Source: Alphaproteobacteria bacterium
GTDB taxonomy: Bacteria > Myxococcota_A > UBA796 > SXON01
Assembly (NCBI GenBank): GCA_040376255.1
Contig: JBEIQZ010000002.1
Span: 1-49,481, forward strand
Reading direction: 5' to 3'
Length of the DNA stretch: 49,481 nucleotides
The position numbers and the translations under genes were made by a program. Shown in pieces: positions 1-14,471 of this stretch; position 1 is the first letter of the stretch; each line of letters starts with the position of its first letter. The notes beneath the pieces were generated by a model, which was not told the origin of the DNA, made no database searches, and saw only the letters and a list, made by a program, of their open reading frames with translations.

Positions 1-1448
1 AGGCGCACCGCCTCCGGGTACGCCCGCTGGATCAGCCGCGCCCACGCCCGCGAGCGCCGCACCACCTCCTTCGCCGCCGACCGCTCCCGCCGCCGCGCCG
101 CCGACCGGCTCAGGCCCGGATCGGCGCCGCAGGCGTCCTCGACGAGAAACCGGTGGACCCCGTCGACGGTGGCCTGCAATTCCGGGCTGCGCTCCAGCTC
201 CGCCGCGAACGCCGCCGCAGGCTCCGCGCAGGAGAGCAGCAGCCGCGCCCGCGCCCCGTCCGCGCTCCCGGCCCGGCCGCCCGGATCGTCCTGATCCTCG
301 TCCTGATCATTGTCCTGACCGCCGAAGGCGTCGCGCAGATCGAAGAACCGCAGCCGCACCCCGGCGCGCGGGGTCAGCCGCTCCTGCTCCGCCACCACCT
401 CCTCCAGCGCTGCCCGGTAGCGGTCGCAGTCCCCGTCGGTGATCCCGACGACCTCGGCGAACACATGCCCGTCCGAGCAAAGCACCAGCTCCACCCCCGG
501 CGCGTGGAGCGCGGCGATCTGCGCGCACAGCTCCCGCAGCCCCGCCAGCGCCAGCCACTCCGCCATGTCCGGCAGCGGCCCCAGCACCTTCGACGGGTTC
601 GGGGGCCGCGCAGGGAACCCCGGCAGCACCAGCCGGATCGGCGCCGATCCCGCCATCAGCCGATCCAGCCGCGCCCCCCACACCGCCCGCATCCCCGCCG
701 CCGCCGCCGCGCGATCCGCCCCCGCCCGCAGCCGCAGCCGCCGCTCCAGCAGCCGCAGCACCGCGCCGCTCTCCCCACCCCGCTCTGCTGCGCCCGCCCC
801 GCCGAGCATCCGGCCCAGCAGCCCGTCCGCCCGCCCAAGCCACGCCTCCACCGCCGGGACGCGCCTCAGCGCCCCGGCTGACATCACGGATTCCGTTGCC
901 ATATCAAGTATATCTGCCATTATCTCTTGGGCATCTTCCCGCCCCGCGACCTGCACCTGCGCCAGCACCAGCCCCAGGTGCAGCGCATACAGCAGCCGCA
1001 CATGGCCCGCCTGATCCCGCTCCTCCGGCGCGTCCTCCGCCCCGGCGACCGCAGCGGCGAACACCGACTGCACCCGCAGCCGCACCCGCGCCGTCTCCGC
1101 CCCCAGCACGCCCGTCCGCGACCGCGCGTCCAGCCCCGCCGCCAGCAGCGCCCGCAGCAGCGCCTCCTGCGGCGCCAGCAACGCCAGCTTCCGCGCCGCC
1201 ACGAACCGGAACCGCGCCGCCACCGTCCCCGCCGGGATCTCAGGCACCGCCGCCTCCAGCGCCGCAGCGAGCTCCTCGTAGAGCGCCAGCACGAACCCCG
1301 CCCGGCCCGGGAAGTGCCGGTACGCCAGCCCCAGCGCGCACCCCGCCTCCAGCGCCACGTCCCGCATCCGCAGCTTCTCCAGCCCGCGCTCCGCGATCAG
1401 CCGCAGCGCCGCCTCCAGCAGCCGGAGCCTCGTCTGCGCTGATATCAT
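1..1448 (-). CDS. TetR-family regulator fused to isocyanide (isonitrile) synthase-like domain (PvcA/IsnA/DIT1 family); 3' end runs off the window
   Basis: Not in the ORF track (no stop inside the window). Hand translation from ATG 1448 (ATGA overlap with the stop of the upstream gene at 1445-1447) is open to base 1: MISAQTRLRLLEAALRLIAERGLEKLRMRDVALEAGCALGLAYRHF (TetR HTH) ... IRLVLPGFPARPPNPSKVLGPLPDMAEWLAL ... VELVLCSDGHVFAEVVGI ... RRSRAWARLIQRAYPEAVRL (DIT1/PvcA motifs). Frame checked at 566, 884-920 and 1448. Confidence 0.85.
   Translation of the reverse strand, partial: MISAQTRLRLLEAALRLIAERGLEKLRMRDVALEAGCALGLAYRHFPGRAGFVLALYEELAAALEAAVPEIPAGTVAARFRFVAARKLALLAPQEALLRALLAAGLDARSRTGVLGAETARVRLRVQSVFAAAVAGAEDAPEERDQAGHVRLLYALHLGLVLAQVQVAGREDAQEIMADILDMATESVMSAGALRRVPAVEAWLGRADGLLGRMLGGAGAAERGGESGAVLRLLERRLRLRAGADRAAAAAGMRAVWGARLDRLMAGSAPIRLVLPGFPARPPNPSKVLGPLPDMAEWLALAGLRELCAQIAALHAPGVELVLCSDGHVFAEVVGITDGDCDRYRAALEEVVAEQERLTPRAGVRLRFFDLRDAFGGQDNDQDEDQDDPGGRAGSADGARARLLLSCAEPAAAFAAELERSPELQATVDGVHRFLVEDACGADPGLSRSAARRRERSAAKEVVRRSRAWARLIQRAYPEAVR
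288..323. repeat. 3x 12-bp imperfect tandem repeat (GTCCTGATCNNN) encoding an acidic QDNDQDEDQDD insertion
   Basis: gtcctgatcctc / gtcctgatcatt / gtcctgaccgcc read directly from the sequence. Confidence 0.7.
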
Positions 1449-3667
1449 CCCGGCTCCCACTCCTGCTCTCCGTCCCCGTCCGACCCGTCCGGCTCCCACG
1501 GCTGCTCTCCGTCCTCCTGCTCCCCGTCCTCCTGCTCCCCGTCCTGTTCCGGCTCCCGCGCCACCCCCGGCGACATCTCAGCCCACCGCGCCCGGAGCAG
1601 CGTGAGCGCCGCCCCTTCTCCCGCGTCGCGCAGCCACCACGCGCCGTCCTCCAGCACGGCGGGGTTCTGCGCAGCGGTCGCCGCGCCGATGGCGGCAGCA
1701 GCGACGCTGAACGGGCAGCCGAGATCCCTGGCGATGTTGTCGAGCTGGATGGCGGCCTCGCGGGCCTCCTCCGGCTGATCGTGGTCGAGGTGGAGGCTCA
1801 GCAGCAGCAGCCACGCCCCGGCGGCGAGCTGCGGAGCGGCCGGGCCGAGCAGGGTCGCGGCCCAGTCGAGGTGCAGCTCTGCGGCCCCGGAGAACCCGGC
1901 GGGAAGCAGCCACGCGCCGAGCAGCAGGTGGAGCCGCCCCAGCGTCGCCTCGTCGTCCCCGTCGTCGGCCTCGTCGATGGCCTGCTCCAGCAGATCGCGC
2001 GCCTCGGCGGTCTTCCCGCGCTGGTAGAGCGCCATCGCCTCCTCCCAGCCCGCCGGGAGGGCGGCGGGCTGGAGATCAGCCGGGGCGTCGGGCATCAGCC
2101 GCCCCGCCAGAAAGCAGAGGGCGCCGCGCCGGAGCAGCCCGGTGCTGCCCTGGAGCGCCACCGCCTCCTGCGAGAGCGCGGCGAGCCGCTCCAGCGCCTC
2201 CTCCCCCTCCGCGCCGACCAGCCCCTCCACGTCGCGCCCCACCCGCACCAGCCGCCGCGCCGCCCGCTTCAGCAGCGTGTCAAACAGCGCGCAGATCCCC
2301 GAGGCCTCCTGCGGATCGAGCCACGGCAGCGCTGCCATCGCCGCCGTCGCCACCTCGACCTGCAGCAGCCCCATCGCGCTGAGCAGCGCGTTCATCCCGT
2401 CGAACAGCGCCGTCACATCGGACTCCCGGATGCCCGGGGGCGGCGCCTCCTCATCGAACAGCGCGCCGAACATCGCGTCGTAGGCGGCGAGCTCCTCGTC
2501 TGCAGATCCGATTCCCTGACCGCTCATCCGATCCTGCTGCCACAGATCCAGCGCGGGCAGCACCGAGATCGCCGCGACGCGCTCCAGCGCGCGCAGGGCG
2601 GGGCCGGGGGCCTCGTCGGCCAGATCGACGTCGGCGGGCTCGGCCAGCTCCCCCTGGACGTGCTCAAAGATTGCGGGGGCGGTGAGCTGCCCCTGCGGGG
2701 CGAGCGCGGCGGCGGCCTCCTCAGCCAGCCCGCGCGTCCGGGCGTCGAGCGCCACCTCAAGCACCGGCTCCCACTGACCGCGATCCATGCCGCTGAGGAT
2801 CAGCTCAGAGAGCGCGAGGACGTGGGCGATCGAGCCCGCGAACCCGAGCCGCTCCGTCGGGACCGGGTGGGAGGCCACCGCCACCGCCAGCAGCCGCGCG
2901 TCCGGCTGATCCGCCCAGGCCGACAGCAGCTTCAGGATCGCCGATCCGCGCCCGTAGGCGTTGTCCAGCCGGTTCAGCCCCGCCAGCAGCTCCAGCGAGA
3001 ACGGGCGCAGCGCGCACCGGAAGGCATGCCGCAGCCCCCGCGACAGCAGCCCCGGCGACCAGGGCGCCTCCCCCAGCGCCTCCTCTGCACCGGCGAAGTC
3101 CAGCAGCTCCGCGTCCTCCCCGTCCTCCTCCCCGATCCCCTCCAGCGGCGCATCCTCGTCGGGCTCCGGCAGCGAGGGCATCGGCCGCCAGCGCCCGCCC
3201 GCCCGGCGCGCGGGGTCGGCGTCCGCGTCGTCGTCGCCGCCGAAGTAGTGGCCCACCCCCCAGGGAGAATTGCCGGTGGAGGTGCCGCCCGCGTGGCCGA
3301 AGATCGGCAGCACCCGCTCGACCTCGTTGCTGTCGGCCTCCTTCTCCTGCTCCTGCTCCTCCGCCTCCTCCTCGCGCTGCTTCTGCTCCTGCGCGGTGTT
3401 GTCGCCCGAGTCGGTGGTCGTCTCGCTGCCCTGCTTGATCAGGCCCTGGAGCGCCGCGTTGCCCATGCTGGCCTGGATCTGCGCGGCGAGATCGTGGGAC
3501 AGCTCTGTCTTCTCAGCAGACTTCTCCCCCTTCTCGCCGATCTTGTCCGCCGCCTCCTTCAGCGCGTCCAGCTTCGGATCGAGCCTCTGGCTCGGCGTGT
3601 TCTTGACCGCGTCGAGGATGGAGCGCGGATCTTTGCCGTCCGGTCGTCGCTGGTAGGAGGTGGCCAT
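1445..3667 (-). CDS. Hypothetical protein: acidic/disordered N-terminus, helical core, TPR-like C-terminal region, EQEDG-repeat tail
   Basis: ORF 1445..3724 trimmed to ATG 3667 (MATSYQRR...), which has TATATT 6 nt upstream. Natural composition; TPR-like helices (WEEAMALYQRGKTAEARDLLEQAI); stop overlaps the next start. Confidence 0.75.
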   Translation of the reverse strand: MATSYQRRPDGKDPRSILDAVKNTPSQRLDPKLDALKEAADKIGEKGEKSAEKTELSHDLAAQIQASMGNAALQGLIKQGSETTTDSGDNTAQEQKQREEEAEEQEQEKEADSNEVERVLPIFGHAGGTSTGNSPWGVGHYFGGDDDADADPARRAGGRWRPMPSLPEPDEDAPLEGIGEEDGEDAELLDFAGAEEALGEAPWSPGLLSRGLRHAFRCALRPFSLELLAGLNRLDNAYGRGSAILKLLSAWADQPDARLLAVAVASHPVPTERLGFAGSIAHVLALSELILSGMDRGQWEPVLEVALDARTRGLAEEAAAALAPQGQLTAPAIFEHVQGELAEPADVDLADEAPGPALRALERVAAISVLPALDLWQQDRMSGQGIGSADEELAAYDAMFGALFDEEAPPPGIRESDVTALFDGMNALLSAMGLLQVEVATAAMAALPWLDPQEASGICALFDTLLKRAARRLVRVGRDVEGLVGAEGEEALERLAALSQEAVALQGSTGLLRRGALCFLAGRLMPDAPADLQPAALPAGWEEAMALYQRGKTAEARDLLEQAIDEADDGDDEATLGRLHLLLGAWLLPAGFSGAAELHLDWAATLLGPAAPQLAAGAWLLLLSLHLDHDQPEEAREAAIQLDNIARDLGCPFSVAAAAIGAATAAQNPAVLEDGAWWLRDAGEGAALTLLRARWAEMSPGVAREPEQDGEQEDGEQEDGEQPWEPDGSDGDGEQEWEPG

Positions 3668-8404
<4,737 letters not shown>

Positions 8405-8417
8405 CCAAGGTGACAGG

Positions 8418-9200
8418 ATGAGCGGGCGGGCCATCGCGCTGATGCTGTTCCTGCCGCTGGTGATGATCGCGGCGGTCGGGCTCGTGCTCACCGAGGAGGT
8501 GCTGCAGTCCAAGGAGGCCACCAAGGCGCAGGCGGACACCCGGAAGGATCCGCTGGTCGGCATGCGCTTCAACAGCGCAAGCCGCACCGAGAATTTCCAG
8601 CGGATGGGCTTCGATGAGAAAGAGCAGCCGCGCATCCAGAAGGAGCTGAAGATCCTCGTCGACCGGTTCGAGGTCCAGACCAACCCCGGCGGGAACCGCG
8701 TCCGCAAGATGCTGGAGCAGGTGGACGATCAGGACGCGCTGGAGGAGGCGTTCTGCCGATCCGACCGGCTGCCGGTGCGCTATGCGGCGATGAATTTCCT
8801 CCTCATCAACAAGGACGCGGGGCTGCGCCCGGTCGATCTGGCCCAGATCACCGGCCTGGAGGCGCAGGGCTGGTTCGCCGAGAAGCGCAGCGTGATCAGC
8901 AGCCTCCACGAGTCCGCCGATCTCCGCACCGACCGGCGCGAGGACTCCACCCGCATGGTCATCGGCGCCATCCTCGCCGACAAGATGGATCTGCTCCAGA
9001 AGGAGGAGGTGCCGTTCAGCTACTCCAGCCTCTCATGGAACGGCTGGAGCTGGGATCGGCTCAAGGAGATGAGCCCCGGCGTGGACGGGATCGCCATCGC
9101 CTACGTGGCCCTGCTCCAGATCGTCGGCGAGGTCGCCTTCTCAGAGGGCAGCATCTGCTACGACTCCGATCCCGCCAACGCCGAGCCGAAGAAGCCCTGA
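8418..9200 (+). CDS. Hypothetical membrane-anchored (N-terminal TM) protein
   Basis: 13 bp after the upstream stop, AGGA before the ATG; hydrophobic residues 5-25; no family recognised. Confidence 0.75.
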   Translation: MSGRAIALMLFLPLVMIAAVGLVLTEEVLQSKEATKAQADTRKDPLVGMRFNSASRTENFQRMGFDEKEQPRIQKELKILVDRFEVQTNPGGNRVRKMLEQVDDQDALEEAFCRSDRLPVRYAAMNFLLINKDAGLRPVDLAQITGLEAQGWFAEKRSVISSLHESADLRTDRREDSTRMVIGAILADKMDLLQKEEVPFSYSSLSWNGWSWDRLKEMSPGVDGIAIAYVALLQIVGEVAFSEGSICYDSDPANAEPKKP

Positions 9201-9248
9201 ACGCAGCGGAGGGCGCCGGATCGCTCCGACACCCTCCCCTGGAACCCT

Positions 9249-9268
9249 TCTGCGCCGCAGGGCGCAGA
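9249..9268. terminator. GC-rich hairpin between convergent genes (possible bidirectional terminator)
   Basis: TCTGCGCC-GCAG-GGCGCAGA perfect 8-bp stem; no strong U-tract. Confidence 0.4.
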
Positions 9269-9272
9269 CAGA

Positions 9273-9890
9273 TCAGAGCTGCTGGCTGTAGTACTCGACG
9301 ATCGACTGCGGGTTGCAGTTGAACGGCAGATCCTCGCGCTCAGGACGGATGACCATCTTGCCGGCGAATTCGGAGGGGTTGAAGTCCAGGTAGCCGGGGC
9401 GGACGCGCGAGGCGGCATGCTCCAGAGCGGCCTGAACAAAGGTGGTCTGACGGTTCTTCGGGTGGATCGCCACCACGTCGCCGGGGCTGACATGGAAGTT
9501 CGGGCGATCCGTGCGGACGCCGTTCACCATGATGTGCTGGTGGACGACCATCTGGCGCGCGCCGGGGATCGTCCGGGCGAGGCCCAGACGCCACACCACG
9601 TTGTCCAGGCGGCTCTCCAGCAGCGTGACGAGGTTGCGGCCAGCGGCACCCTTCTGACGGGTGGCCTCGACCATGTAGCGCCGGAACTGGCGCTCCTGAA
9701 TGCCGTAGTGGAAGCGCATCTTCTGCTTCTCAACCAGGCGTTCTTTGAAGTTGGACATCTTGCCCTTGCGCCGGGCGCCATGCTGGCCAGGGGCAAAAGG
9801 GCGCTTGAGCTGGGATTCGGTCGTCAGACCCGGCAGAATCTCACCGAGAGAACGGCATACCTTGAGACGGGGTCCGCGGTAACGTGCCAT
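9273..9890 (-). CDS. rpsD: 30S ribosomal protein S4
   Basis: MARYRGPRLKVCRSLG...PGQHG...LVEKQKMRFHYGIQERQFRRY...LLESRLDNVVWRLG...ARQMVVHQHIMVNG...IVEYYS; ATG 9890 preceded by AGGAG. Confidence 0.97.
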   Translation of the reverse strand: MARYRGPRLKVCRSLGEILPGLTTESQLKRPFAPGQHGARRKGKMSNFKERLVEKQKMRFHYGIQERQFRRYMVEATRQKGAAGRNLVTLLESRLDNVVWRLGLARTIPGARQMVVHQHIMVNGVRTDRPNFHVSPGDVVAIHPKNRQTTFVQAALEHAASRVRPGYLDFNPSEFAGKMVIRPEREDLPFNCNPQSIVEYYSQQL

Positions 9891-10004
9891 GAAGAGAGGC
9901 TCCTGAAGAAAAGTGCTGTCCCGGCTAATCCGCTGTGCGCTCAAATGCAAGCTGGATGACCCGGAAGATCTGGATGTCGACGGAGCATCCGGTTATCGCC
10001 CCGG

Positions 10005-12268: not shown

Positions 12269-12722
12269 TCCAGCGCGCCTCGGCCACCGTCAGCGTGTCC
12301 CGGTGGACCCGATCCTCCTCGGCCATCTTCGCGAAGAGATCTTCAAACTCCGGCCGGCCGAGCAGCATCCGGGTGCGCCCGTGCAGCTCCTCGCTGCTCT
12401 CCTCGACGCGGCGGGCGATGTTCAGCGCCTCGCGGATGGTGATCGGGGTGGTGGGCTGCTCGTACTGCTGGCGCAGGGAGCGGAGCTGCTCCAGGAAGGT
12501 GCGGGAGGGCTGCGGATCAGCGTCGCCCTCAGCGGCCGGGGTGAACGTCGCCTGCAGGATGCGGATGCTGGCGGCGTGGTACCGCTCGGCCTCCGCGTAG
12601 TGGCGCCAGAAGTACACCATCTCCGCCCGGCCCTGGAAGCAGCGCGCGAAGACCTCATAGAGGCCCGCACACTCCAGCTCGATCGACACCGCCAGCTCAA
12701 TCATCTCTGCAGGTCCAGCCAT
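12261..12722 (-). CDS. Ferritin-like / rubrerythrin-like di-iron four-helix bundle protein
   Basis: AVSIELECAGLY...EAERYH...ARRVEE...EEDRVH: repeated E / ExxH pattern; overlaps the DUF309 start. Confidence 0.75.
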   Translation of the reverse strand: MAGPAEMIELAVSIELECAGLYEVFARCFQGRAEMVYFWRHYAEAERYHAASIRILQATFTPAAEGDADPQPSRTFLEQLRSLRQQYEQPTTPITIREALNIARRVEESSEELHGRTRMLLGRPEFEDLFAKMAEEDRVHRDTLTVAEARWSV

Positions 12723-12830
12723 TCGGTTCCTCAGCGCAGCACAGCGTAGTAACCGCGAGCGCCTCCGGCTACTGCCCGGAGCGCAGAGACACGCGCTTCT
12801 GTGGGATCACAGACCAGATCAGAGGCTGGA

Positions 12831-14471
12831 TCAGAGGCGGCGCCGGTACACATAGGTCCCGATCGCGCCGATGATCATCGCGCCGGGCATCAACACCAGC
12901 GACACGAGCCAGCAGAGCAGCAGCCCCATCGTCGACATCTCCAGCCGACCCTTCGCCGCCTCGTTCGGACGGATGCCGATCTGATCGTCCTCGCCCGCCA
13001 TCCACGCGACGGTGTTCAGCAGCAGATCCTGGTTCAGCCCGTTGGCGAGGAGCTGGTTGGAGGCGAAGTCCATGTCGCCCACCACCACCACCTTGCCGCC
13101 CGCCAGCCGGGGCAGCTCTGCCGTCACCGCCGCCGGGGGCGCCGCCGGGACGCCCGGCGACCCCTCCGGGGCCACCGGCGCCGCCGCCTCGGTCTTCGTC
13201 CGCAGGCCCGACGGATCGCTGATCTCAGCCACCGCCATCACCGGCACCTTGCCGATCAGGTCGCGGCCCTCAGTCGGCGCAGGCTCCGCCGCCTGATCCT
13301 TGTAGTCGCTCTCGGCCCAGCTCTGCTCAGAGGCGCGGGCCAGCTCCTTCACCTCGACCCCGGCCACCGCGTCGCCGACCTTCACCGAGCGCGCGAGGAA
13401 GAACACCGAGTTGCCCTTCAGCTTCTCGGTGAGCGGGTGCGGCTCGTAGCTGCCCTGATCGACGATCAGCCCGAACGGGTTGTTCTGGAGCATCCGGTAG
13501 GGATCGGTCTCGATGACGACGTCATCGCCGACCTTGACGCCGTACCGCGCGAAGTCATTGGCCACCGTGGCCGGGACCGTCGGATCCATGAGCGCGATCA
13601 GCGCCCCGCCCGCCGCCACGTACTGCGCCAGCCGATCCAGCTCCTCCGGCAGGATCTCAGTCTGCGGCCCGGCCAGCACCACCAGCTCACAGGAGGTCGG
13701 TGATGGCGCGGTCGCGGTGAGCGTGATCTTGCTGACCGTGTAGTTCTGCGCCTCCAGCTTGTCCTTCGCCAGACCGAACCCCGACTGAGAGCCGCTGTCG
13801 TCCGGATCCATCTCCCCGTGACCGCTGACCACGCAGACCTTGTGCTGCTTGTCGGAGGTCACCAGCACCAGCGCGTTGGTGATCGACGACTCGTCGAAGG
13901 TGTACTCGATCCGCTTCTCCTGGCTGCCCGCCCGCAGGATGACCGTCCCGGCCTCCGAGGCGATCTTCTCCTTCTCGGCCAGCAGCGGCTCCTCAGACGG
14001 GTCGTGGTACTCGACCTTCAGCTGCGAGCTGTTGGCGAGGTACTGCTCCATCAGCGTCTCAAAGTTCTTCTGCTCCGGGGCGCCCTTGGTGAAGAAGGCG
14101 ATCACCTCCACCTGACGATCCAGCTTCTTCACAAGATCTACGCTCTGCCCGGAGAGCGTGTACTGCTTGTTCTTCGTCGCGTCCCAGCGCCAGGTGGAGC
14201 TGTGCGCCGCCACGTTCGCGGTGATCGCGATCGCCAGCCCGAGCAGCGTCGCCACCAGCGCGTTGAGCGAGCGCGCGGAGGTCTGATCGTTGCGGTAGTC
14301 CTGGATCAGCGACCAGTCGACCGCGATCCACACCACCAGCAGCGCCACCCCCAGCCCGCCGGCGCCCTTCACCAGGAGCGGCATGTCGCCGTCCAGCGTG
14401 AGCGCCGCCGCGCCGCTCCCGATCAGACACATCAGCCCGATGAGGCCAAAAAACCATCCAAAGCCGCGCAT
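12831..14471 (-). CDS. GldG-family ABC transporter auxiliary component
   Basis: Three N-terminal TMs, WDATKNKQYTLS, VSGHGE, LVVLAGP, VVVGDMDFASN, NQDLLLNTVAWM and a C-terminal TM. Confidence 0.9.
   Translation of the reverse strand: MRGFGWFFGLIGLMCLIGSGAAALTLDGDMPLLVKGAGGLGVALLVVWIAVDWSLIQDYRNDQTSARSLNALVATLLGLAIAITANVAAHSSTWRWDATKNKQYTLSGQSVDLVKKLDRQVEVIAFFTKGAPEQKNFETLMEQYLANSSQLKVEYHDPSEEPLLAEKEKIASEAGTVILRAGSQEKRIEYTFDESSITNALVLVTSDKQHKVCVVSGHGEMDPDDSGSQSGFGLAKDKLEAQNYTVSKITLTATAPSPTSCELVVLAGPQTEILPEELDRLAQYVAAGGALIALMDPTVPATVANDFARYGVKVGDDVVIETDPYRMLQNNPFGLIVDQGSYEPHPLTEKLKGNSVFFLARSVKVGDAVAGVEVKELARASEQSWAESDYKDQAAEPAPTEGRDLIGKVPVMAVAEISDPSGLRTKTEAAAPVAPEGSPGVPAAPPAAVTAELPRLAGGKVVVVGDMDFASNQLLANGLNQDLLLNTVAWMAGEDDQIGIRPNEAAKGRLEMSTMGLLLCWLVSLVLMPGAMIIGAIGTYVYRRRL

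Follow-up and report, generated by a model that had tools for sequence, protein, structure and literature searches.

A TetR regulator fused to an isonitrile synthase at the head of a predicted biosynthetic cassette in Myxococcota

TetR regulators are among the commonest switches of bacteria and are widely used as biosensor parts, and as a rule they are small and free-standing. Isonitrile synthases, as described in the passage cited from PMC7949033, join the amine nitrogen of tryptophan or tyrosine to a carbon of ribulose 5-phosphate. A stretch of 49,481 nucleotides from a genome placed in the Myxococcota (GenBank assembly GCA_040376255.1, contig JBEIQZ010000002.1; here called the window) raises the question of whether a single gene at its left edge unites the two and, if so, whether the product acts as regulator, as enzyme or as both. 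The original prediction, made from the letters alone, had proposed an in-frame fusion of a TetR regulator with an isonitrile-synthase-like domain. We find that the fusion is a real gene, which encodes a complete TetR module and an intact synthase fold of the PvcA/IsnA type.

The frame starts at ATG 1448 on the minus strand and continues as 482 stop-free codons down to base 3, where it runs off the window edge, just as had been predicted. Its GC content at third codon positions (GC3) is 0.91, which is typical of coding DNA here; the GC content of the window as a whole is 69%. The gene and its parts are located as follows.

1..1448, minus strand: TetR-isonitrile synthase fusion gene, first 482 of 566 codons (open frame; full length from protein P0164)
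804..1448, minus strand: whole TetR module, about amino acids (aa) 1-215; helix-turn-helix (HTH) and all-helical ligand/dimerisation domain
1281..1421, minus strand: TetR_N helix-turn-helix, aa 10-56 (PF00440, E 4.1e-11, 42.9 bits, cut-off 24)
735..803, minus strand: linker, about aa 216-238; predicted disorder at 218-222, where the predicted local distance difference test score (pLDDT) is below 50 in the AlphaFold2 (AF2) model
3..656, minus strand: DIT1_PvcA isonitrile-synthase domain (Pfam), aa 265-482 of 265-538; remainder on contig C280

The TetR_N match spans all 47 profile positions, and the recognition helix of the window's protein reads ALGLAYRHFPGR. Alignments place the family motifs PxGTVAxRF and GAxDAP in the ligand domain, and the TetR helices extend to residue 215 in the AF2 model. 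This half resembles 3c07 of Streptomyces coelicolor both in sequence (aa 3-171, E 1.2e-13) and in fold, with a template modelling (TM) score of 0.86 and a root mean square deviation (rmsd) of 1.9 A over 209 columns, which bears out the claim of an HTH followed by a full ligand domain. The next nearest structures are the acyl-CoA sensors KstR and FadR.

On the window part of the protein, DIT1_PvcA (PF05141) scores 163.5 bits (E 9.7e-48, cut-off 26.4) over profile positions 5-216 of 273, and the match stops at 216 because the contig ends there; both of the Pfam families that had been proposed are therefore above their cut-offs. Among the diagnostic motifs listed at the outset, KVLGPLPDMAE, CSDGHVF and RSRAW are present, and AVRL appears in the window as AVR only, its Leu codon being completed on C280. 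The NCBIfam PvcA equivalog (NF045653) gave 104.7 bits against a cut-off of 600; with a score so far under the mark we do not count the protein among the PvcA orthologues and assign it no substrate. Modelling and residue checks used P0002, which is 97% identical to the window's protein (P0001), as a proxy. The AF2 model of P0002 has a mean pLDDT of 87.6 and a predicted TM score (pTM) of 0.86, and in a Foldseek search (E 2.6e-21) its synthase part could be superposed on PvcA and also on PIsnA bound to L-tyrosine or to product (TM, normalised to the target, 0.89-0.93; rmsd 2.4-3.0 A). P0002 retains 26 of 27 near-invariant synthase columns, defined as those at least 93% conserved among 96 synthase rows without TetR. 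The only one changed is Lys281 of the FPAK motif, which is Arg in P0002, P0003 and the window's protein alike.

One explanation to be weighed at this point is that assembly or gene calling has merged two separate genes. The assembly is fragmented (6.5 Mb in 983 contigs, 86% complete), the window is the whole of its contig G000:C515, and the gene is cut by the contig end. The missing C-terminus, which comprises the last 84 residues, is found on contig G000:C280 (plus strand, 3..272), and the ends of C515 and C280 share a terminal overlap of 19 nt. Another public assembly has a 20,152-nt contig that encodes P0164, a protein of 566 aa. P0164 agrees with the window part of the fusion at 482/482 positions and with the C280 part at 89/89, and the join is settled because it matches both pieces at 100%. 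In full-length P0164 both domains are complete, with DIT1_PvcA reaching 212.9 bits over profile positions 5-269 of 273. A scan of metagenome contigs for a near-identical contig was also made, and it returned distant relatives only (41-62% identity over the matched part).

The domain junction was inspected in contigs of four runs from four studies, aligned on window positions 1-1500. The original prediction had named a stop or frameshift at about 850-950 as one observation that would refute it; in these contigs no indel is listed at the junction (window 850-950), and one 6,576-nt contig of another study covers positions 1-1482 unbroken and continues beyond the window edge. In the long gene-spanning contigs, indels occur only at window 295-319; they sum to 15 nt in each of X2, X6 and X7 and are therefore in frame. 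The one other indel listed, a 1-nt deletion at position 83, occurs in a single low-depth X6 contig of 115 nt. The variable positions belong to the following element.

279..329, minus strand: acidic low-complexity loop GGQDNDQDEDQDD of the synthase domain; length variable between strains, pLDDT below 50 at aa 380-388

P0002 also differs at this loop (window 295-319, about aa 377-385), as strain-level, in-frame variation in length.

The same architecture recurs well beyond this genome. A word-indexed search returned 13 matches, every one of which carries both PF00440 and PF05141 (520-561 aa, 40-97% identity). When 1.84 billion cluster representatives were searched exhaustively with a profile, 36 of the best 150 listed matched both halves in one stretch as full-length fusions and a further 10 were fragments across the junction; below these in the ranking are synthases of about 300-350 aa that stand alone. 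Twelve fused loci are from genome contigs, of which 11 are labelled Myxococcota, Polyangiaceae, Archangium, Myxococcales or Polyangia and one Planctomyces. Within the phylum the distribution is patchy: the fused form was present in 4 of 401 evenly sampled genomes, the window's own counted, and in none of 12 other sampled genomes of the window's family.

A tree of the synthase domain (158 rows, midpoint-rooted only, from a sample biased towards relatives of the fused family) has all 62 fused rows together on the same side of one branch, whose support is 98 in the Shimodaira-Hasegawa-like approximate likelihood ratio test (SH-aLRT). In building it, poor domain coverage or an X led to the removal of 16 of the 174 candidate rows, and P0002 stood in for the truncated P0001. 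Together with the fused rows are 6 unfused rows, 4 fusions to cyclic-nucleotide (cNMP) domains and 1 IsnA-TauD fusion; the opposite side holds 85 rows, none with TetR. When trees of the two halves were compared, with 61 of the 62 fused rows retained, 13 of 17 and 11 of 14 well-supported splits were held in common and there was one conflict. We read this, from the sequence relationships, as one old fusion followed by occasional loss or swap of the N-terminal module, and the position of the cNMP fusions on the same side suggests that the sensor domain has been swapped. The merging of two genes by error is scarcely credible, given an architecture that dozens of independent assemblies and studies repeat, at identities as low as 35-40%, the identity of P0164 across the C515-C280 join, the junction spanned by one contig of another study, and the congruence of the TetR and synthase half-trees.

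Annotation pipelines already carry the architecture, as JGI names some members 'Dit1/AcrR family transcriptional regulator'. In the open-access papers and preprints that we searched there was no description of a TetR-isonitrile-synthase fusion, of a TetR module serving as the DNA-binding part of an enzyme, or of a myxobacterial isonitrile cluster or compound. The individual parts (PvcA/IsnA, PvcB/IsnB, UbiA and TetR) are known; it is the fusion and the Myxococcota cluster for which that literature gave no account.

Candidates for split forms were considered and set aside. P0146, P0159 and P0120 match the TetR half only; P0146 and P0159 stop in mid-domain and look like fragments at contig ends. 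At locus L023, where the synthase is unfused, a separate TetR gene is not a split form, because tblastn (E up to 1e-3) found no similarity between it and the fused TetR halves of the 12 other related loci searched. In the window's own family, L046 (G242:C44, 5001-5717, minus strand) has the C-terminal part of a related synthase only; a TetR half could not be detected, the frame upstream of it is garbled, and the locus probably represents a decayed copy. Other architectures of the synthase were seen among P0056, P0061, P0065, P0073, P0126 and P0057: the first four join a pair of cNMP-binding domains to IsnA, one of them with DUF924 as well, and the set also includes a cytochrome P450 (P450)-IsnA protein and an IsnA-TauD-UbiA protein of 1044 aa.

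What the synthase half is likely to do is indicated by the genes that follow it. On C280 a TauD-family gene begins on the stop codon of the fusion (GTGA). Its TauD match has E 5.6e-43 and its best relatives in PDB are PvcB (3.6e-44) and PIsnB (7.1e-41), so that the dioxygenase partner for which a search leftward had been recommended is indeed there. TauD lies directly downstream of the synthase in 13 of 13 related loci. In Myxococcota loci the TauD gene encodes about 520-580 aa, with a UbiA prenyltransferase at its C-terminus (five of five tested, and L023), and UbiA-like sequence follows TauD in 12 loci as well as in the window's own genome, where the UbiA half is on contig C866 (L026, 2-735). 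Next comes a gene of about 140 aa with a weak likeness to Coq4 (7 loci and the window's genome); an atlas search with this small third gene found only clusters automatically named 'COQ4 family', which is a lead and no more. The unfused locus L023 has two Coq4-like genes, at 8849-9607 (+) and 12458-12925 (+). The one upstream is full-length (252 aa, PF05019 E 3.4e-29) and the short form is downstream of the synthase; this pair strengthens the link of the cassette to Coq4-type chemistry.

The planctomycete locus L021 has a separate dioxygenase, followed by an Orf2-type aromatic prenyltransferase and a P450 in place of UbiA. The occurrence of two unrelated kinds of prenyltransferase at the same position argues for a prenylated aromatic isonitrile product. 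From this gene content, the product of the cassette would be a prenylated, membrane-associated aryl isonitrile or isocyanoacrylate. According to section 12 of PMC9467999, a K or R at the position of PIsnB K107 together with N or H at that of N188 marks a dioxygenase that forms a vinyl isonitrile, and L together with C one that forms an isocyanoacrylate; the paper also reports that point mutants left the product unswitched. The TauD protein of the window's genome has Leu at the first position, as in PvcB, and Ala, which belongs to neither type, at the second; with such mixed residues the product could be of either class. The cassette predicts isonitrile natural products from Myxococcota.

The case for the TetR half as a regulator comes from the DNA in front of the gene in relatives of the window's protein. 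Repeated pseudo-peptides in spurious open reading frames just upstream of the gene led to a palindrome in the DNA, TGAAC-NN-GTTCA, for which the operator DNA is TGAACATGTTCA. We defined the operator core as the 12-mer TGAACNNGTTCA, with up to 1 mismatch and within 200 nt upstream of the start; the 12-mer was chosen because the flanks at L036, which holds three core copies, differ from those of the 18-mer. By this definition the core palindrome is present in 10 of 18 fused loci, as compared with 12 core matches in the 276 kb outside those regions (about 0.01 per 220 nt). L035 and L036 have three operator copies each, spaced 23 or 48 nt apart, the last of which overlaps the ATG. Three further fused loci have copies with two or more mismatches. 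All 13 operator-bearing loci, strong or weak, keep a recognition helix of the form S-x-GL-x-x-[RA]-YFP-[ST]-[RK], and four of the loci without an operator (L012, L015, L021 and L034) lack this signature, their GL core having been replaced; the presence of the operator thus tracks the recognition helix. No palindrome common to L012 and L015 came to light when their upstream regions were aligned, and a search for inverted repeats upstream of the window's gene, L012, L015 and L021 gave one weak palindrome only, in L015. By eye, a different 7-4-7 palindrome, TCCGGAA-ttgc-TTCCGGA, is seen upstream of the L021 gene at about 9925-9945, where there is no TGAAC operator.

Similar palindromes occur beside free-standing relatives of the TetR half. 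In about 18 of the 401 sampled genomes, free-standing TetR proteins match this half strongly (110-185 bits); they share the HTH signature and several of the ligand-domain motifs, though not every paralogue does. Eight of ten loci of such paralogues have similar palindromes (18-mer, up to 4 mismatches). Clear examples, each with two or three copies, are seen at L040-L043 and L045; at L047 there is no copy. Across L040-L045 (in genomes G392, G287, G166, G055, G232 and G272) there are 1-3 copies, those in tandem being 15-34 nt apart. At L043 and L045 the palindromes directly precede genes of the fatty-acid-desaturase type; the gene at L045 encodes a 651-aa fusion of Mpo1-like, LPG_synthase_C and FA_desaturase parts. 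Taken together, the sequence patterns indicate that in most of the family the TetR half would bind DNA, and the operator in relatives supports autoregulation. The suggestion that the protein is a self-regulating trigger enzyme gains support in this way for the family, in which both domains are present and look intact and the operator stands at the gene itself as well as near standalone paralogues; for the window, where the gene has no such site, it does not.

How the two halves might be arranged was modelled with each half as a separate chain with its own alignment. The complex scored 0.82, 0.82 and 0.78 in three runs, and the best of three controls 0.00; of 80 solved complexes 58 come up to the 0.82 mark, as do 2 of 110 mismatched pairs, a comparison that is rough since the alignment was our own. 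The runs share at least 76% of their contacts, with a partner pLDDT of at least 83. On the TetR side the contacts are made by residues 26-29, 38-40, 43-45 and 47-50, that is, by the HTH including the recognition helix, and the helices that would be expected to form the TetR dimer interface are absent from the confident contacts. The result is not the memory of a like complex, because no solved chain matches both halves. When mean charge is summed over the 23 scorable interface positions of the synthase, it comes to -3.10 in fused proteins versus +0.34 in standalone ones, a difference amounting to more than half of the shift for the whole domain. Random sets of positions were as negative in 10 of 10,000 draws, and in 116 of 10,000 when drawn from variable positions.

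The reading that we favour, and to which we give a modest preponderance of belief, is that of a bifunctional 566-aa protein at the head of an isonitrile cassette, which autoregulates in most lineages and in which the state of the enzyme may be coupled to DNA binding. The C-terminal two thirds would be an isonitrile synthase that converts the amine of an aromatic amino acid to an isonitrile with a carbon from ribulose 5-phosphate. The N-terminal third would be a complete TetR regulator, probably descended from free-standing myxobacterial repressors that recognise TGAAC-NN-GTTCA. Behind the fusion, in the predicted order of the pathway, would act the PvcB/IsnB-type Fe/2-oxoglutarate dioxygenase joined to its membrane-bound UbiA, and then the small Coq4-like protein. 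In most lineages the cassette would come under autoregulation, as the TetR module would bind between one and three operators overlapping the start region of its own gene. Off the DNA, the synthase is predicted to sit on the HTH by way of its fusion-specific acidic surface, and enzyme state and DNA binding may be coupled in this manner. Of these elements, the data show the fusion, the two folds, the cassette, the operator of relatives and the single clade, and catalysis, the product, repression and the coupling are inferred.

A number of observations weigh against this reading, and the window itself supplies many of them. No site was found in 5 of the 18 fused loci (the window, L012, L015, L021 and L034, the last with an upstream sequence of 65 nt only). 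The window has 0 matches to the 18-mer at up to 3 mismatches, and neither C515 nor C280 has a core match at up to 1 mismatch. In the whole 6.5-Mb genome there are 7 exact cores, none with the usual AAG...CTT flanks. The start of the fusion overlaps the stop of an unrelated upstream gene, so that the fusion has no promoter region of its own. The recognition helix of the window's protein has lost the flanking Ser and Ser/Thr and is intermediate, that is, partly diverged. A sigma-70 scan of the upstream regions of L036 and L022 found 0 sites, which says nothing either way. In the gene for the prenyltransferase partner as assembled here, the reading frame of the UbiA half shifts near C866:223-241, where there is a run of G; either the assembly may be at fault or the frameshift is real. 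The FPAK Lys is kept in 94% of standalone and in 59 of 62 fused synthases and is Arg in the window's clade. Four points concern the docking model. The two chains belong to a single polypeptide, so that their proximity is to be expected; the window's clade shows only a weak acidic stripe, WAEAQAE; constraint at the interface, measured as entropy, is no higher in fused proteins (1177 of 5000 random sets equal it); and the charge test was conceived after the residue table had been seen.

For the fusion in the window, then, autoregulation in cis is not supported; binding elsewhere or a loss of binding is possible, and the regulatory role of the protein in this genome is uncertain. The sole perfect 14-mer GTGAAC-NN-GTTCAC of the genome, at G000:C781:1903, could be a target in trans or a chance match. 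The upstream gene with which the fusion overlaps is the following.

1445..3724, minus strand: gene of 759 aa upstream of the fusion; its TGA stop overlaps the ATG of the fusion (ATGA); GC3 0.92

No Pfam family matches it above cut-off, and the 13 related loci contain no relative of it. The ATGA overlap makes it probable that in the window's genome the two genes share a transcript and are coupled in translation. The 759-aa protein has acidic repeats of the EQEDG type at its C-terminus. Divergent from its gene lies a gene for a protein of 991 aa (window 3711-6686, plus strand), with a protein-kinase match that is weak and below cut-off and with long Pro-rich tracts of PEPK/PPRxE repeats.

From this evidence one might propose that the TetR module here no longer binds DNA and is a fossil regulator that the enzyme retains for structural reasons, to dimerise or to hold a hydrophobic ligand or the prenylated product. 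In addition to the missing operator and the ATGA coupling, this would agree with L012 and L015, the closest relatives with upstream sequence, which also have no operator and a replaced GL core, and with the model, which buries the HTH on a face of the synthase that in the window's clade is hydrophobic and not acidic. Yet the helix of the window's protein still reads LGLAYRHFP, near those of L035 and L036 with their three operators each, TetR_N is above its cut-off over its full length, the TetR half is conserved across the family, and in a genome that is 86% complete a target in trans could be unassembled. We hold such a loss of DNA binding in this lineage to be rather unlikely.

A different account of the family leaves the halves independent of one another: an ordinary ligand-gated TetR is tethered to the first enzyme of its pathway, the synthase does not gate the HTH, the effector is a lipid or a pathway product in the TetR pocket, and the fusion fixes stoichiometry and co-expression only. 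The likeness to the standalone paralogues in HTH signature and ligand-domain motifs, the palindromes before the desaturase-type genes at L043 and L045, the acyl-CoA sensors KstR and FadR as the nearest structures after 3c07 and the lack of extra interface constraint are all in keeping with it; the pTM of 0.86 with a confident and reproducible interface on the HTH, and an acidic shift that is specific to fusions and falls at exactly the interface positions, are not what it would lead one to expect. We consider it a possible account, although the balance is against it. The docking model suggests a further hypothesis, that of enzyme-gated DNA binding with the synthase docked on the HTH. In its fullest form the synthase would be a built-in anti-repressor, an acidic, DNA-like stripe on helix 295-314 would hold the recognition helix off the operator, and its release would depend on whether substrate or product fills the active site, or on whether the TetR pocket is filled, with membrane-anchored prenylated aryl isonitriles as what is controlled. 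Carried to that length the proposal is doubtful in our estimation.

The original prediction had also allowed for a one-component sensor that merely borrows the synthase fold. Such a protein, catalytically dead and used to read a metabolite, could be imagined from the Lys to Arg change in the FPAK motif of the window's clade, or from the other sensor-type domains (cNMP-binding) that are fused to related synthases. It sits badly with the 26 of 27 near-invariant residues kept in P0002, with a whole fold that matches PvcA and PIsnA, and with the dioxygenase, prenyltransferase and Coq4-like partners conserved alongside, which would be pointless without a first enzyme. We therefore disfavour it as very improbable, and return to a protein that would both catalyse and, in most lineages, regulate. 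The UbiA fusion, the Coq4-like gene, the lineage of standalone TetR proteins and the modelled docking on the HTH were not anticipated in the original prediction.

Comparison with known systems makes clear which features are shared. With PvcA, IsnA and PIsnA (PF05141; PDB 3e59, 9dh4 and 9dhm) the fusion has in common the fold, the motifs and a PvcB/IsnB-type dioxygenase immediately downstream, but those enzymes are standalone proteins of about 300-350 aa, whereas here a TetR module precedes the synthase and the partner dioxygenase is fused to UbiA. With TetR repressors such as 3c07, KstR, FadR and the standalone paralogues it shares the HTH and the helical ligand domain; unlike them it has an enzyme of 350 aa after the last TetR helix, and its HTH is predicted to be covered by that enzyme. 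The standalone myxobacterial paralogues have the same recognition-helix signature, S-x-GL-x-YRYF, and palindromic operators like those at the own start of fused relatives; they are 32-34% identical to the TetR half and are found near lipid-modifying genes, not isonitrile genes.

Among regulators with an enzymatic function, the trigger enzymes PutA, BirA and NadR each combine a pathway enzyme and the DNA-binding regulator of that pathway in one polypeptide. The principle is the same in the fusion, while the families and folds are unrelated and the coupling of catalysis to DNA binding is, in our case, taken from a model. Fungal XanB and CrmA (compare PMC5974471) have fused partners that are catalytic (a dioxygenase or a part resembling a nonribosomal peptide synthetase) and not a DNA-binding regulator. 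They are nonetheless similar to the present protein in that an isocyanide synthase domain lies within a larger fusion protein. The cNMP-IsnA fusions (P0056, P0061, P0065 and P0073), on the same side of the branch in the synthase tree, also place a small-molecule-sensing module N-terminal to the synthase, but their sensor is a pair of cyclic-nucleotide-binding domains without a DNA-binding domain. In the hapalindole and ambiguine pathways of cyanobacteria, an isonitrile synthase and an IsnB-type dioxygenase are followed by prenylation of the aromatic isonitrile. The predicted order in the Myxococcota cassettes is alike (compare the parts of PMC4236562 on these pathways), and L021, with its soluble Orf2-type aromatic prenyltransferase and its P450, is closer to that logic still. 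Unlike the cyanobacterial pathways, the Myxococcota cassettes use a membrane UbiA fused to the dioxygenase, a Coq4-like protein and the TetR fusion.

A conserved fusion of a TetR module to the first enzyme of a pathway would offer a compact system for learning how catalysis and gene control are coupled in one polypeptide, and it comes with a recognisable operator in many relatives and a docking model that can be tested. The predicted logic of the cassette, in which synthase, dioxygenase-UbiA and Coq4-like protein follow one another, resembles the making of a quinone-like lipid head group, and the standalone paralogues, whose tandem operators stand ahead of desaturase-type genes, make up a small regulon family. 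If enzyme-gated binding is true, we would have in this protein a TetR repressor that is gated by a metabolite and sequesters itself, a kind of regulation for which the family offers no described precedent, and in Myxococcota the cassettes may direct the synthesis of a class of membrane-anchored prenylated aryl isonitriles that was previously unknown.

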